From IMG/VR virus record IMGVR_UViG_3300025120_014716: 64,000 nt of DNA; one strand, 5' to 3'. The stretch comes from an uncultured virus (IMG/VR IMGVR_UViG_3300025120_014716) (Duplodnaviria; Heunggongvirae; Uroviricota; Caudoviricetes). This document shows, piece after piece, positions 380 to 60,845 of the stretch (the first letter of the stretch is position 1; every line of letters starts with the position of its first letter). Below the pieces are notes generated by a model. The model was not told the DNA's origin. It made no database searches and saw only the letters and a program-made list of their open reading frames with translations. Position numbers and translations under genes: made by a program.

Positions 380-1276
380 ATGATGGAGGGTATTAAAAAA
401 ATAGGAAAATTTTTTGGATTAGTTAAAGATAATTTAACTGATACTGAAATTCAAAAAGGAATAATTTCAGAATTAAAAAGCCAGGAGTATTTGTTGGGGT
501 CAGAAATATGTGAGTTAAACAAAAGACTGGAATTGAATGGAGAGAACTTTTCTATTTTTCAAAAAACAACCAGGGATAAAATAGAGAAAGGTTTTAAAGA
601 GGGTGAAGGGTTGTTGGCTCATGCATCAGAAAGGTACTCCAGGGTAGATGACTCAATTTTAAACCAACTTTCAGAAAAACATTTTAACCTTAAAGAGGTA
701 CAGTCAAAAATAAGTGTTATTGAAAAGGCAATTGACCCAGATGGAAAGGAAACTGGAAAAGGCAAAAAAACTTATGTCAATGCCATAATTCAAAATGAAA
801 ATAATGAGATCTTATTTTTATTAAGATCAAGCAGTGACTCATTTGAACCAAATACATGGGGTCTTCCAGGAGGAAAGGTTGAGCCAGGTGAAAACCTAAA
901 AGAGGCACTTTTAAGAGAGGTAAAAGAAGAGACAGGATTAACGGTGGTTGACTGTTTTCCAAGCAGGGTTGAAAAGTTTGATACTGGAGAAAAACACTAT
1001 TACCATACTTTTGTAAAAGAGGACTGTTCTATAATTTCATTGAGTAATGATGAGCATTCAAATTATGCATTTATGTCCATGCAAGAAATTGAAAAGAGAG
1101 ATGGGTACCTTGTAGACCTTAAGCAAAACATCCTGGAAATAATGAATCCATATGGACCTGTCAAGAAAGGTTTTGATACCCTGATTAAAGGACTTAGTGA
1201 TGGCATTGATGGAATTACAAGTGATACAGTTCAAGAAACATACCTTACCTGGTACAATAAAGTAAAAAAAGACTAA
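380..1276 (+). CDS. Nudix hydrolase with N-terminal helical extension
   Basis: Nudix box [24 protein letters not shown] preceded by WGLP. Confidence 0.9.
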
Positions 1277-3214: not shown

Positions 3215-4708
3215 ATGAGCAATGTTAGCGTAGATTTGGCTCAGTACGGTCATGGTGCAGGATTAGGGGATGATGCAATGGCATCAGTACCTCAGTCAGC
3301 AGAGGCAGTACATGAGTTATCAAAGGCACTTGAGGCAAGATCAATCACAGGTAGAGAAACTACTGGTTTGACAAATGCATCAGGAGCACCACTTAAGGTA
3401 GAATCTTTAGAGAAAAACTTAAAGGTTTTAACTTTTACAGAAAATGACATCAGAACCTGGAAAAGGATTCCAAAGGCACCTGCATTCAACACAGTTGAGG
3501 AATACTTGCAGTTACAGTCTTATGGAGCAGACAGAGGAGGTTTTAATAATGAAGGTGAATTACCTGAAGAGGAGGATGCAACTTACGTTAGAAAGGCTGA
3601 GTTAGTAAAATTCTTAGGAGTTACTAAGTCTGTTACTCATCCAATGACTCTTACAAAAACGTACATCGGAAACGCAGTACAAAGAGAAGTTACAAATGGT
3701 ATCCAGTGGATCCTTAGAAAAGCAAATAAAGGTTTGTTTTATGCAAATGCATCTTTGGTTCCTCAAGAATGGAATGGTTTATATACTCAGCATTATGTAA
3801 ATGGTGGTTATGCTAATTTAGATGCATACCAGGCAAACAATGAGTTGGTAGTTGATTTAAGAGGTAAGAGACTTAAGGAAGAGAATATTGAAACTGGAGC
3901 AGAGGCAATCGTGAGAGCGTTTGGTCAAGCAAATGTTTTAATTGCACCTCCAGTAGTTCACTCAAACTTTGTAAAGAACTTCCATGACAAAAAGTTAATC
4001 AATCCATCTTCAATTCAGGTAACTGGAGCGACAATGGGTCAAAAGGTTAATAAATTTGCATCTCAGTATGGTGAAATTGACCTTGAGTATGATATTTTTG
4101 CATCAAAGTCAGCACCAAAAGTATTAGGTGATGGAGCAACAAGCACAAAGGCACCTACAGCAGTTACATCAAACAGTGGGGCAACTCCTGTGGCAGCTAA
4201 CTCTCAGTTTGCAGCAGCAGATGCAGGTAACTACGTTTATGCAGTTACAGCTAAGAATAGATACGGTGAGGCAGCACCAGTGAGAATCACAGGTGGAGCA
4301 ATTGCAGTGGCAGCAGGTGATGGTACAGACTTGGAATTTACAGCAGGTGGTGGTACTTATGCAGCAACTTCATTTGTAGTTTACAGATCTAAAATTGGTG
4401 ATACAGGAGCAGCAGCTAAATTATACCCTATCATTGAGGTATCTGTAGCAGAAAAAGCAGCAGGTTTTGATGGAGCAGCAGCAACAAAGGTAAGGGACAT
4501 TAACAGATACCTTCCTGGAACTGAGGAGGCTTTATTGTTACAAGATTCATCAGACATTTATGAGTTCAAGCAATTGGCACCATTAATGAAAATGCCTCTT
4601 GCACAATTAAGTCCTGCACAAAGATTTATGGTCTTACTTTATGGTACTCCAATTATGTACCAACCTAAAAAGGTTGTAAGGTTCATTAATATCGGAACTG
4701 CATCTTAA
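3215..4708 (+). CDS. Major capsid protein (SPO1/Twort/A511-like)
   Basis: LKVESLEKNLKVLTF...AFNTVEEY and C-terminal LMKMPLAQ...VLLYGTP..YQPKK resemble Herelleviridae-type capsids; follows the protease and is followed by a terminator. Confidence 0.9.
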   Translation: MSNVSVDLAQYGHGAGLGDDAMASVPQSAEAVHELSKALEARSITGRETTGLTNASGAPLKVESLEKNLKVLTFTENDIRTWKRIPKAPAFNTVEEYLQLQSYGADRGGFNNEGELPEEEDATYVRKAELVKFLGVTKSVTHPMTLTKTYIGNAVQREVTNGIQWILRKANKGLFYANASLVPQEWNGLYTQHYVNGGYANLDAYQANNELVVDLRGKRLKEENIETGAEAIVRAFGQANVLIAPPVVHSNFVKNFHDKKLINPSSIQVTGATMGQKVNKFASQYGEIDLEYDIFASKSAPKVLGDGATSTKAPTAVTSNSGATPVAANSQFAAADAGNYVYAVTAKNRYGEAAPVRITGGAIAVAAGDGTDLEFTAGGGTYAATSFVVYRSKIGDTGAAAKLYPIIEVSVAEKAAGFDGAAATKVRDINRYLPGTEEALLLQDSSDIYEFKQLAPLMKMPLAQLSPAQRFMVLLYGTPIMYQPKKVVRFINIGTAS

Positions 4709-56450: not shown

Positions 56451-56713
56451 GTAATGTAAGTAGATTGAATTTAAAAAATGTTATTGATAAACCATTTTTG
56501 AAAAAAAGACTGAGGCAAATAATGATCAACTCAGGTAGGCATCAGATGTTGGAGTCCCTGGACAACAAATCAATTGCCAGGGTTATGTATTTCCTTAAAG
56601 GATACCTAAAATGTATTGAGTACCATGGAATACAACCAATTAATACAAGTGAACTGCAGGATCTCCTGGTAAGGGAGGCATATGATTTCATTGAGGAATA
56701 TACAACACATTAA
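56447..56713 (+). CDS. Hypothetical protein
   Basis: ATGA overlap with ruvC. Confidence 0.55.
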   Translation: MSNVSRLNLKNVIDKPFLKKRLRQIMINSGRHQMLESLDNKSIARVMYFLKGYLKCIEYHGIQPINTSELQDLLVREAYDFIEEYTTH

Positions 56714-56717
56714 AAAC

Positions 56718-56747
56718 AAAAGGGAACCTTAAACAGTTCCCTTTTTT
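56718..56747. terminator. Bidirectional terminator between convergent genes
   Basis: AAAAGGGAAC-8nt-GTTCCCTTTT with A and T tracts on either side. Confidence 0.8.
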
Positions 56748-57298: not shown

Positions 57299-57565
57299 TT
57301 ATGAACTTGTGTACCATTTCCAGGCAAAGCTAATTGATAGTTTTATATTCATTATTTCAAGTTTATCAATTTGACCTTTTACTACTCCTGCCTGGTATCC
57401 AATGTTAAGGTTGTTTTTTAAAACCTCAGTAATGTTTTTACCATTTAAGGTATGAAATTGTAAGTTTCTGTCTCCTGGTATAAACTCAAATGTAATGTAA
57501 TACTGATCATCTATAAGCAATATGCTATAGCCTTCATCATTTAATAATTTAATAATTCCCTCCAT
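57299..57565 (-). CDS. Hypothetical protein
   Basis: Co-oriented with the previous gene; no competing + ORF. Confidence 0.55.
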   Translation of the reverse strand: MEGIIKLLNDEGYSILLIDDQYYITFEFIPGDRNLQFHTLNGKNITEVLKNNLNIGYQAGVVKGQIDKLEIMNIKLSISFAWKWYTSS

Positions 57566-57731
57566 ACAAATGTATTTTATATTTAAGTGGTAAATATACT
57601 AATTTACTACTTACATTTGCAGTAAATAGGTCTATTCTTGATTTGTACTCCTATGTATTCAGGATCTATATATACATTATAATTAAATAAACATATGTAT
57701 CTATATAATTATAATTTTATGACTATTTAAT

Positions 57732-57762
57732 TTTGTAGGTTTAAATTTAAGAGTTAGATTTG
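57732..57762 (+). promoter_or_regulatory. Bacteroidota primary-sigma promoter
   Basis: TTTG, 19 nt, TAGATTTG; related boxes TACATTTG at 57612 and 57840. Confidence 0.7.
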
Positions 57763-57767
57763 CAACC

Positions 57768-57904
57768 GAAGACAAAGTTTTGAGTACAAATCATTTTAGC
57801 AAAAAATAAGAAATTAAAATACAAAGAACCAGGATCAAATACATTTGCAAAACTGTACTATTAGGTTATCACAAATACTTTGTCTTCTACCCTGGTTCTT
57901 TTTT
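57768..57904 (+). ncRNA. Structured 5' leader (long hairpin with pseudoknot or alternative pairing)
   Basis: GAAGACAAAGT/ACTTTGTCTTC, AGTACA/TGTACT, TTTT(A)GCAAA/TTTGCAAAA nested; loop AAAGAACCAGG complementary to downstream CCTGGTTCTTT. Confidence 0.65.
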
Positions 57905-57922
57905 AAATTGTAGTAGAAGGCA

Positions 57923-58786
57923 GTGATTAAAGTAGCAGAGAACACTTATAAATTGGCAAATAGTAACGGAATACTTAAAGAGTATTTGACATATTGCCAG
58001 TTGAAGTCCTACAGTAATAGTGGATGCATTAATAAAAGAGATGTAAGTTCTGCAGCAAAATTCATTAAAAAGGGTGTTTCTACTCTTAGAGATCATTTGA
58101 CAGTATTGGTAAACCAGGGACTTGTTAGAAGAGGCAAGCATCACTATAGCCTGGTTTCATATGATACAGCCTGGAGCATGCTTGGTCAGGATCTTTCTCC
58201 AAATAAAAACGGTAAGAGAAATGGTAACTTTGCCATATTTAAGTTACCATTAAAATACTTAAAAGAAAATATTGAATTTAATGAAATAGAATTGGAAGTA
58301 AAGAGGTCTGCAGTTAAGGCAAAAAGTTTTATACTGTGCAATTACAAGTCACTTTCCGACATAGAAATAAAAAGGATCAAGTCATGCTCATTAACCGATC
58401 TAAGGTCCATCCTGGATGATCTATATGTGGAGCAAATGTCAGTTGAGAAAGGAGTTAAAAATTGCATTGATAATAAAATTAAAGCCAGGTACAGTAGGGC
58501 AAAAGATAAAGAATTTAAGTACACAAAAATAACTCCATTTCCAACTTGTAGAAGGATAGCCTTAATTTTGGGTTATTCCAACTCAGTAAGGACTGGGAGT
58601 TTAATAAGAGAAAGGATTCAAAAGGCAGGGTTTGCCAAGTGGATCTCCAGGAGGGTGAATTTTTGTAAAACTGTAAGTTTTGAGGGTACAAAGACAGTCA
58701 GGGAGTTAGCCTGTAAGTATGGACCTGTAAAGGATAACGGTGCATTTGGTACGGTTGAATTAATATCTAAATTTACAGTAAAATGA
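57923..58786 (+). CDS. Basic protein with two putative winged-helix domains (Rep-initiator-like or regulator; GTG start)
   Basis: AAKFIKKGVSTLRDHLTVLVNQGLV and TCRRIALILGY....GSLIRERIQKAGFA. Confidence 0.55.
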   Translation: MIKVAENTYKLANSNGILKEYLTYCQLKSYSNSGCINKRDVSSAAKFIKKGVSTLRDHLTVLVNQGLVRRGKHHYSLVSYDTAWSMLGQDLSPNKNGKRNGNFAIFKLPLKYLKENIEFNEIELEVKRSAVKAKSFILCNYKSLSDIEIKRIKSCSLTDLRSILDDLYVEQMSVEKGVKNCIDNKIKARYSRAKDKEFKYTKITPFPTCRRIALILGYSNSVRTGSLIRERIQKAGFAKWISRRVNFCKTVSFEGTKTVRELACKYGPVKDNGAFGTVELISKFTVK

Positions 58787-59229
58787 ATACTGTTTACGTT
58801 TACACAGATGGATCTTGTAACTATAAGGATAAAAAAGGTGGCATTGGAATACACATGAGGTACCAGGATCATGAAAAAAACATTTCAAAGGGTTACAGTA
58901 ATACCACTACAGGTAGAATGGAGTTAAGAGCAGTCCTTACAGCACTTAAAACAATAAATAACAAGTCAGTTAAGGTTGAGGTACATTCAGACTCACAGTA
59001 TGTTGTTAATACAGTCAATACCTGGATGTATTCCTGGGAGAAAGAAAATTATTCAGGTAAGAAAAATGTTGACCTTGTAAAGGCTATTATGGCTGAGGTT
59101 AAAAAATTCTCACCTGGTAGTGTTATTCTCACCTGGGTAAAGGGTCACAGTGGGGTCCCTGGTAATGAATTAGCAGACTTATTGGCAAATGAAGGTAGAC
59201 TATCAGAAAATTTAGAATTATGTCAGTAG
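58783..59229 (+). CDS. rnhA: Ribonuclease HI
   Basis: YTDGSC, TT.RMELRA, SDSQY, KNVDL, WVKGHSG..GNELAD.LA. Confidence 0.95.
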   Translation: MNTVYVYTDGSCNYKDKKGGIGIHMRYQDHEKNISKGYSNTTTGRMELRAVLTALKTINNKSVKVEVHSDSQYVVNTVNTWMYSWEKENYSGKKNVDLVKAIMAEVKKFSPGSVILTWVKGHSGVPGNELADLLANEGRLSENLELCQ

Positions 59230-60568: not shown

Positions 60569-60710
60569 TGGTACAGAACTTATGACAGAAAACTCAAGTT
60601 TTATAAAAGGTTTTCCATGCCTGGAAGTAAGTGTTGGGCATGTGCCAGATTATAATGAAGAGGAAGAGTCTGAGGTTCCAGGAAATTGGTACCATCCTTT
60701 GAAGGATTAA
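60552..60710 (+). CDS. Small acidic hypothetical protein (52 aa; not in ORF track)
   Basis: Open frame overlapping the previous gene end. Confidence 0.4.
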   Translation: MEKDINGTELMTENSSFIKGFPCLEVSVGHVPDYNEEEESEVPGNWYHPLKD

Positions 60711-60811
60711 ATAATATTACATAATATAGTTTTAACTGCAAATGCTTAACGGTGTATGTTAGTAATGGGAGAGTAACTCAAAAAGTTTCTTGTTTTGTTT
60801 GTTTATAGTTT

Positions 60812-60845
60812 AGAGGGGCATTATGTTTGGTGCCTCTCTTTTTTT
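60812..60845 (+). terminator. Intrinsic terminator
   Basis: AGAGGGGCA-10nt-TGCCTCTCT followed by a T run. Confidence 0.75.

Follow-up and report, generated by a model that had tools for sequence, protein, structure and literature searches.

An interleaved leader in front of a winged-helix gene and RNase H

The 64,000-nt stretch of DNA analysed here, referred to throughout as the window, comes from an uncultured Caudoviricetes virus (IMG/VR record IMGVR_UViG_3300025120_014716) and carries a leader of ~140 nt (57768-57904) between a promoter and an operon that encodes a 287-aa winged-helix protein and an RNase HI-type enzyme (Table 1). The leader lies in the 357-nt spacer that separates the winged-helix gene from a small gene on the minus strand, and it is defined by two pairs of arms, A with A' and B with B', each pair being an exact reverse complement over 11 nt and both being recovered by a repeat search. 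The order of the arms, A-B-A'-B', is interleaved. An earlier sequence-only reading of the window had described this arrangement, together with two inner helices, a consensus promoter ending 5 nt before the hairpin, a B' arm that runs into a T tract and a GTG start coupled to RNase HI, and all of these were confirmed by the analysis below. A third helix would join part of A' to the positions just before the start codon, with 10 bp both in the window (one G-U pair) and in its closest relative (no G-U pair).

The frequency of such an arrangement was assessed by dinucleotide shuffling of the 200 nt before the window's start codon, where two interleaved stems of at least 10 bp (at most one G-U pair) occurred in 21 of 2000 shuffles, and interleaved stems followed by a T-rich tail in a single one of the 2000. 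When the + strand of the whole window was scanned for interleaved stems, the leader was the only hit. Moreover, the pairing of the first 18 nt after the promoter's -7 box with the interior of B..B' was matched in only 14 of 5000 loop shuffles. No further leader of the same design was found in the window or in the next 13.3 kb, and within that range the leader is specific to the winged-helix/RNase H operon.

A separate repeat, a perfect 12-bp inverted pair (57639-57650 / 57782-57793), links a stretch upstream of the promoter to the stretch just 3' of arm A, and similarly placed 11-bp pairings with two G-U pairs occur in two of the relatives introduced below (L003, 3752-62 / 3845-55; L004, 843-53 / 992-1002). 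The window's repeat could refold transcripts from an upstream start, or could reflect chance in AT-rich DNA.

Diverged relatives keep the layout with different letters

Close relatives of the 287-aa protein form just five clusters, and a profile search reached 122 family representatives at E <= 0.001. Leader DNA was obtained from metagenome contigs for L002, L003 and L004, whose proteins share 78%, 45% and 41% identity with that of the window (the L004 gene being partial), and for the distant L006 from a public 635-kb uncultured phage. Full leaders are provided by the window, L003 and L004; the L002 contig starts inside the leader and is without the A arm. L006 (LR745206.1) was found by tblastn with P0012 (28.7% identity, E 2e-5) and encodes a full-length family member, its membership being supported by hhalign against a 62-sequence family alignment (probability 99.7, E 2e-25). 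The phage collection gave no DNA match and no tblastn match with the window protein, P0011, P0016 or P0013, only P0012 giving LR745206.1, and scans of viral contigs and genome contigs returned no more relatives.

Comparison with L002 reveals an almost invariant stretch from A' to the start codon and a B:B' helix of AGAGGAGCCAGG / CCTGGCTCCTTT followed by more T. There the two arms, GGAGCCAGG...CCTGGCTCC then T8, differ from those of the window by two compensatory changes, A57828G with T57896C and A57825G with T57899C. In the more distant L003 and L004, MAFFT alignment of the three full leaders is confined to the promoter and the start codon region, and both pairings recur in the same interleaved order, with gaps from A' to B' of 3 (window), 8 (L003) and 0 nt (L004). 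Interleaved stems of at least 10 bp were reached in 6 of 2000 shuffles for L003 and 3 of 2000 for L004 (under the strict tail rule, L003 itself was scored as not T-tailed), and equally good pairing between the first 18 nt and the interior of B..B' in 13 and 223 of 5000 shuffles, respectively. L006 displays a variation on the same theme, a canonical 12-bp terminator stem that abuts the ATG and whose loop is complementary over 9 bp to a segment itself located in the loop of a small upstream hairpin; when the upstream 100 nt were shuffled, a loop match of such length arose 33 times in 5000. The interleaved order of an H-type pseudoknot (5'-S1, 5'-S2, 3'-S1, 3'-S2) is present in the window, L003, L004 and L006.

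Because diverged relatives keep the layout with different letters, the leader is probably a real control element, conserved and either pseudoknot-capable or two-state, as the sequence-only reading had suggested; compensatory change in L002 and wholesale sequence change beyond it both preserve the pairings. The rule that an element near the 5' end pairs inside a terminator-like hairpin before this gene family holds in four diverged lineages and takes two forms, long interleaved helices of the window type and the loop-loop contact of L006. Chance complementarity in AT-rich spacers, with no function, is extremely improbable in our estimation. Such spacers do hold many short repeats, and the nested fold of the window leader is not unusually stable; against chance stand the low shuffle frequencies of the interleaved stems (0.0015-0.01 in three lineages) and of the targeted pairing (0.003-0.045 in three lineages, 0.007 for L006), as well as the two compensatory changes between close relatives.

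Two further observations concern short features of these leaders. Each of the four leaders has a TAAGAA situated 2-19 nt 5' of arm B (window 57808-57813, L002 11-16, L003 3866-71, L004 1018-23), and its TAA would stop a tiny non-ATG frame starting in or just after A in the window and L003 (in L002 by alignment), not in L004. L004 alone contains, at 992-1131, a 46-codon ATG frame that spans B, A' and B' and whose stop overlaps the main start codon (ATGA); it is not in the window or L003.

Table 1. Coordinates of the leader, its operon and comparable elements (window positions unless a relative is named)
Feature	Position	Strand	Basis or remark
Divergent small gene	57299..57565	-	Bounds the intergenic region; module partner, equivalent gene in L003
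Bacteroidetes-type promoter	57732..57762	+	-33 TTTG (57732-35), 19-nt spacer, -7 TAGATTTG (57755-62); pattern match
Arm A, GAAGACAAAGT	57768..57778	+	At or next to the predicted transcript 5' end; 11-bp perfect complement of A'
Inner helix 1	57783-88 / 57854-59	+	6 bp; in the minimum-energy fold
Inner helix 2	57794-803 / 57844-52	+	9 bp, one bulge; in the minimum-energy fold
Arm B, AAAGAACCAGG	57823..57833	+	5' side of the split terminator-like helix; located in the A hairpin's A-rich apical loop
Arm A', ACTTTGTCTTC	57877..57887	+	Within the B..B' loop, 3 nt upstream of B'; no difference between window and L002
Third helix	57881-90 / 57913-22	+	Predicted; joins a portion of A' to the last 10 nt ahead of the start codon; window and L002 only
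Arm B', CCTGGTTCTTT, and T run	57891..57904	+	B' 57891-901 running into T run 57899-57904
Winged-helix protein, 287 aa, two-domain	57923..58786	+	GTG start; initiator-like (a lead); profile search, predicted fold, structure matches
RNase HI-type gene	58783..59229	+	PF00075, E 2.1e-37; phrog_531; ATG overlaps preceding stop
Canonical terminator-like stems	4733-61, 11112-42, 47150-73, 56718-45	+	Loops 5-8 nt; AAAGGG...CCCTTT then T
L003 A / A'	3815-24 / 3954-63		10 bp, 1 G-U
L003 B / B'	3891-3900 / 3972-81		10 bp; extension 3884-90 / 3985-91
L004 A / A'	959-66 / 1084-91		8 bp, continued by 973-82 / 1066-75
L004 B / B'	1027-36 / 1092-1101		10 bp, then ATTTTT
L006 terminator stem	1443-54 / 1472-83		12 bp, 17-nt loop, T7, abutting ATG
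L006 loop contact	1460-68 / 1375-83		9 bp; 1375-83 in the loop of a small upstream hairpin

Promoter, start codon and gene coupling

The promoter, TTTG-N19-TAGATTTG ending at 57762, follows the Bacteroidetes consensus TTTG / TAnnTTTG as given in PMC7366714. A TTTGTAG-N16-TAnnTTT(G/A) block occupies the same alignment columns in the window, L003 and L004 (in the latter two as TTTGTAG-N16-TAnnTTTA), and in each of the three full leaders the first base of arm A comes 4-6 nt after the aligned -7 box (5 nt in the window). The pattern is without enrichment across the window (7 matches against 3.2 expected; 7 of 100 shuffles reach 7), and one further match at 60798-60829, which overlaps a canonical terminator, was set aside as probably due to chance. 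That terminator (~60811-60842, T7 tail) lies between an ORF ending at 60710 and a Dda-like helicase gene.

Parts of the promoter are repeated nearby. The promoter-like block at 57740-57764 has a duplicate ~150 nt upstream (57576-57621, 80-81% identity) that holds a second TACATTTG box (57612-19), and a third copy of TACATTTGCA lies within the leader at 57840-49. This internal box is without a TTTG at the -33 distance in the window, and its TA is lost in L002 (CTCATTTG).

The assignment of GTG 57923 as the start codon was strengthened by the motif MIK(V/I)AE, found at that codon in all four aligned relatives, with ATG replacing GTG in the three that have DNA (L002, L003 and L004). At the other end of the gene, the ATGA at 58783-86 fuses its stop with the RNase H start, a 4-nt overlap that L002 shares and that is a 2-nt gap in L003; RNase H is translationally coupled to the winged-helix gene, and the coupling is kept in L002 and L003. 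The small divergent gene has an equivalent in L003 (33% identity, E 2e-20), and the succession of small divergent gene, leader, winged-helix gene and RNase H forms a conserved module. The helicase was tried as a synteny anchor and dropped, the window and L003 helicases being just 23% identical. The RNase H proteins of L002 (991-1632) and L003 (4873-5541) bear an N-terminal extension of ~65-75 residues that is not in the window's 148-aa enzyme.

A terminator-like helix split by the partner of the predicted 5' end

By a definition of terminator-like stems as at least 8 bp with at least 4 G-C pairs and a T-rich tail, the + strand of the window holds five, of which four are canonical (Table 1) and the fifth is B:B'. 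The B:B' helix, 11 bp with a CCAGG/CCTGG core and followed by UUCUUUUUU, combines a GC-containing stem with a U run, and it shares with the canonical four the AAAG..CTTT form, an A-run, a GC core and a T-run, but it encloses a 57-nt loop. A T-rich run follows B' in L002, L003 and L004 as well, and T7 follows the stem in L006. Thus, B:B' resembles the phage's own terminators, apart from an insert bearing A'.

Two side observations concern the elements of these stems. The hairpin at 56718-56745 is terminator-like in both directions and sits between convergent genes ending at 56713 (+) and 56762 (-). ACCWGGT, whose CCWGG core is present in both B and B', occurs 33 times in the whole window against 8.2 expected (standard deviation 3.05), a count reached in none of 100 shuffles; this excess may reflect a Pro-Gly codon pair preference or a selected site.

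The reading that we favour, held tentatively and with a little less than even confidence, is that the leader would act in cis as an RNA gating transcription of the operon, and perhaps its translation, through a split terminator that contacts the transcript's own 5' end. It is built on the pairings and their conservation, the position of the promoter, the terminator likeness and the coupling of the genes. Transcription would start at the host-type (Bacteroidetes) promoter, and the RNA would then begin with arm A; B:B' with its U run would be an intrinsic-terminator-like helix, split by the 57-nt insert holding A', the complement of that 5' end. A polymerase leaving A' would have 3 nt before B', and therefore the capture of A' by A could decide how B' meets B. 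The A:A' helix and the remaining 5' half would keep B at the far end of a long hairpin, which might delay or prevent the terminator. A free 5' arm would consequently permit read-through into the gene, and an occupied 5' arm would let B:B' form, stopping transcription and hiding the ribosome landing zone. We infer in this scheme that termination occurs, along with the direction of control, its signal and the translational gate.

Folding energies agree with a choice between two structures. In all three full leaders the nested minimum-energy fold is a long hairpin that A:A' closes and that carries B close to the tip, and forcing A or B yielded -19.5 and -17.2 kcal/mol in the window, -40.3 and -34.9 in L003, and -32.1 and -28.2 in L004. 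The fold with B:B' forced is thus less stable by 2.3, 5.4 and 3.9 kcal/mol, respectively, and two alternative folds of similar stability exist in each of the three.

Several results weigh against a switch of this kind. The loop of B:B' (window, 57 nt; L003, 71 nt; L004, 55 nt) is not the short loop of an intrinsic terminator, a length of 55-71 nt being atypical, and in L003 the T-rich run lies partly within the extended helix. The nested fold of the window leader is unremarkable (z = 0.20 for 57760-57925; z = -0.78 for 57768-57906, with 46 of 200 shuffles equally stable). L003 and L004 are more stable than their shuffles (z -3.41, 0 of 200; z -2.85, 1 of 200), but the excess of ~9-12 kcal/mol is about that of the A:A' duplex alone (~-13), and therefore selection on the inner hairpin helices is not demonstrated. 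A:A' and B:B' share no nucleotides and could stack as one pseudoknotted helix rather than exclude each other, a coaxial arrangement that may be feasible given the length of the connecting loops, the position of A at the 5' terminus and the proximity of A' to B' (loops from the coordinates of ~44/43/3 in the window, 66/53/8 in L003 and 60/47/0 in L004). The start, stop and strand of the transcript are themselves things we infer, and the reverse complement folds about as well as the + strand (-26.0 against -19.5 kcal/mol in the window, -34.5 against -40.3 in L003, -31.9 against -32.1 in L004). Finally, the sample of leaders is small, four plus one distant case, with L002 lacking the A arm.

Given these energies, the strand call rests on four other points, namely the conserved promoter, the direction of the genes, the T run after B' in four of four leaders, and, in L002 and L003, G-U pairs compatible with the + strand; one extension of B:B' in the window, to 13 bp, fits the minus strand only and opposes the call. 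The same evidence bears on an element acting at the DNA level, either inverted protein-binding sites or hairpins of single-stranded DNA at an origin, which we hold to be highly improbable. The lack of strand preference in folding energy and the 13-bp B:B' on the window's minus strand would suit such an element, and paired sites for one protein would likewise change in concert. Its arms would, however, be interleaved and 55-140 nt apart, and the spacing between the conserved promoter and arm A is fixed. In four of four leaders a T-rich run comes after B' on the + strand, but on the minus strand such a run is no consistent neighbour of the complement of B. At the same place L006 bears a textbook terminator hairpin, and L002 B, L003 A and the L003 B extension contain G-T pairs compatible with the + strand alone.

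The alternative in which both helices coexist is a translational pseudoknot, with A:A' and B:B' stacked coaxially (as a kissing complex in L006) and setting ribosome access as in IncI-alpha repZ, the U run being a mere A/U-rich landing zone and helix extension. We regard it as unlikely, though it has several points in its favour. The end of B' lies 21 (window), 9-19 (L003) and 27 nt (L004) from the start codon, and the L006 hairpin abuts its ATG; an A arm at the extreme 5' end and an A' arm 0-8 nt from B' are what coaxial stacking would need; and the third helix of the window and L002 pairs A' with start positions -10 to -1. Initiation in Bacteroidetes, according to PMC6847099, proceeds without Shine-Dalgarno pairing and is tuned by mRNA structure. 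Against it, no counterpart of the third helix was seen in L003 or L004, B:B' has the form of the phage's own terminators, no leader peptide is conserved (upstream frames differ in start codon and length), and no antisense promoter was seen by eye.

A simpler function in RNA processing or stability, in which the 5'-terminal helix and the long imperfect hairpin would protect the 5' end or serve as an RNase III-type site with no regulated termination, is in our view very improbable. It would be consistent with an arm A paired from the first transcribed bases and with a long hairpin as the nested minimum-energy fold, both in three of three full leaders, but it leaves the conserved B:B' helix, its compensatory changes and the T run unexplained.

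The winged-helix protein and the phage setting

The fold of the 287-aa protein was predicted from 62 sequences out of 126 proteins, long matched stretches being kept and fragments and N-terminal-only matches dropped. This prediction (mean predicted local distance difference test score, pLDDT, 95.2; predicted template-modelling score, pTM, 0.90) supersedes a poor earlier one from 5 sequences (pLDDT 43.5). Residues 1-98 are modelled as a winged helix with a leading strand and helix, and this domain matches best an archaeal regulator (2d1h, Z 7.3), followed by DnaD N-terminal domains (2vn2, Z 7.2; 8ojj, Z 6.9) and the plasmid initiator 4pta (Z 6.6), scores that are tied with those of many MarR/ArsR-type regulators. 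For the C-terminal part, an alignment to the LexA DNA-binding domain (Z 6.1) was obtained, together with a weak resemblance to HTH_36, HTH_20 and DnaD/replication-protein clusters (template-modelling score 0.30-0.38). Of the two winged-helix segments that the sequence-only reading had announced, the N-terminal one is therefore modelled with confidence and the C-terminal one is probable. The whole two-domain fold matches three uncharacterised viral proteins only (BFVD, E 2e-8 to 1.4e-5); Foldseek against PDB gave nothing at E <= 0.001, and a profile search of PDB sequences gave generic helix-turn-helix matches only (best E 0.005).

HTH_36 is found in 9 and HTH_24 in 8 of the 62 members by Pfam; in PHROGs, three match 'replication initiation O-like', two, one and one match three 'replication initiation protein' families, and one matches 'DnaD-like helicase loader'. 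All of these initiator and loader matches are weak (E 1e-5 or weaker). The window protein itself reached no family profile at threshold in Pfam or PHROGs and matched no initiator PHROG, and the label 'initiator-like' is accordingly a lead rather than a finding. The membership among tandem winged-helix plasmid Rep proteins that had been envisaged was not borne out: neither Rep_3 nor any other Rep family appears among the window protein's Pfam matches or among the families of the 62 members (25 of 29 shown), and no iterons (direct-repeat families) lie upstream in L003 or L004, the window having just the two promoter-like duplicates. As for the suggested RNA-controlled module for replication initiation or attenuation, attenuation stands as the best current reading.

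The window's genes for phage structure encode a head protease, a major head protein, a baseplate wedge protein and the large terminase. They are accompanied by a T4-like replication and recombination set comprising a DnaB-like helicase, primase, DNA polymerase, thymidylate synthase and SbcCD-like nuclease, together with a UvsX-like recombinase, a RuvC-like resolvase and the Dda-like helicase. Nearly all genes lie on the + strand, and an identical copy of the 287-aa protein is known from a contig of up to 89 kb. The GC skew, examined over the window, is positive throughout and makes no turn at the leader site.

This setting bears on an alternative in which the terminated RNA of ~135 nt would itself be the product, either a stable pseudoknotted small RNA or an origin primer or R-loop RNA processed by RNase H near an origin-binding winged-helix protein, an idea that we hold to be distinctly improbable. 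In its fullest and equally improbable form, the leader would be the RNA part of the phage replication origin, its 5' end and terminator stacked as a pseudoknotted helix, with RNase H trimming the RNA to a primer or clearing it and the winged-helix protein binding nearby. The succession of leader, winged-helix gene and RNase H in the window, L002 and L003, the weak matches of eight of the 62 members to four initiator PHROGs (and of one more to the helicase loader), the DnaD (Z 7.2) and 4pta (Z 6.6) resemblance among many similarly scoring winged helices, and the T4-like replication and recombination genes would all be in keeping with it. On the other side, the upstream regions of L003 and L004 yielded no iteron arrays and the site showed no skew turn, the leader RNA is A-rich, not G-rich, and ordinary regulators score equally well in the structural comparison. 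The one connection to RNase H is the gene neighbourhood, from which a ColE1-like primer role, raised by the sequence-only reading, might be drawn by analogy.

Comparison with known systems

The trp and pyr leaders and the expression platforms of riboswitches are leader attenuators that operate through a terminator and an antiterminator. The leader described here resembles them in its promoter-proximal position, its two long-range pairings of similar energy and its GC-core stem with a U run before the first gene. It is unlike them in that its helices are interleaved without shared nucleotides, A' ending 3, 8 and 0 nt before B', and in its 55-71-nt terminator loop, the lack of a conserved leader peptide or ligand-type core, and the lack of sequence conservation outside the promoter. 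The gene 32 mRNA of phage T4 carries a small 5' pseudoknot, with no U-run terminator, that is bound by the single-strand-binding protein it regulates. Both would be pseudoknots at the very 5' end of a phage replication-gene mRNA that control that gene, whereas the present leader is larger and has a terminator-like helix with a U run.

In the plasmids pT181 and pIP501, a pre-emptor segment pairs with the 5' arm of the terminator, and an antisense RNA is the signal. A leader terminator just before an initiator gene, with an upstream segment deciding its formation, would be common to those plasmids and the window, but here the 5' segment pairs inside the terminator loop and an antisense RNA is not evident. 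This countertranscript-driven attenuation of rep genes is mentioned in the review PMC8383071, which also treats the IncI-alpha/IncB repZ mRNA pseudoknot of ColIb-P9. As far as that account of repZ goes, the likeness extends to a hairpin loop that pairs just upstream of the ribosome site, an initiator-type gene and the A-B-A'-B' order. The leader differs from it in its helices of 8-12 bp, in the U run on B', in that no antisense RNA gene was found and in the lack of a conserved coupled leader peptide, only L004 having a 46-codon frame that ends on the main start. A search for a repY-like peptide gave no ATG frame in the window leader, and the frames present (TTG, 9 codons, in the window; GTG, 15, in L003; ATG, 46, in L004) do not correspond; inspection by eye of the window's minus strand to the right of B' revealed no -7 box of the Bacteroidetes type.

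The leader therefore fails at least one defining feature of each of its closest systems, be it shared nucleotides, a coupled leader peptide or an antisense RNA. For the protein, the N-terminal winged helix with its leading strand and helix, along with the weak PHROG matches of some relatives, is reminiscent of the DnaD N-terminal domain and of lambda O-like and RepA_N-type initiators; it departs from them in scores tied with MarR/ArsR-type regulators and in the lack of any profile at threshold for the window protein. No Rfam family was matched by 57400-58100 (best match 20.6 bits against a gathering score of 80), and literature searches found no paper describing such a leader element, which is probably uncatalogued.

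Implications for the phage and its protein family

If the origin reading were true, it would couple synthesis of the initiator to origin firing, and a milder version of it would leave a new family of '5'-end-into-terminator-loop' RNA switches tied to one phage protein family. Under the split-terminator reading that we favour, the design would be unusual, a split or looped terminator-like helix that contacts the transcript's 5' end and has neither conserved sequence nor a conserved leader peptide or antisense RNA. Such a conserved leader in front of an initiator-like gene may mark a control point of the replication programme in uncultured Bacteroidota-type phages.

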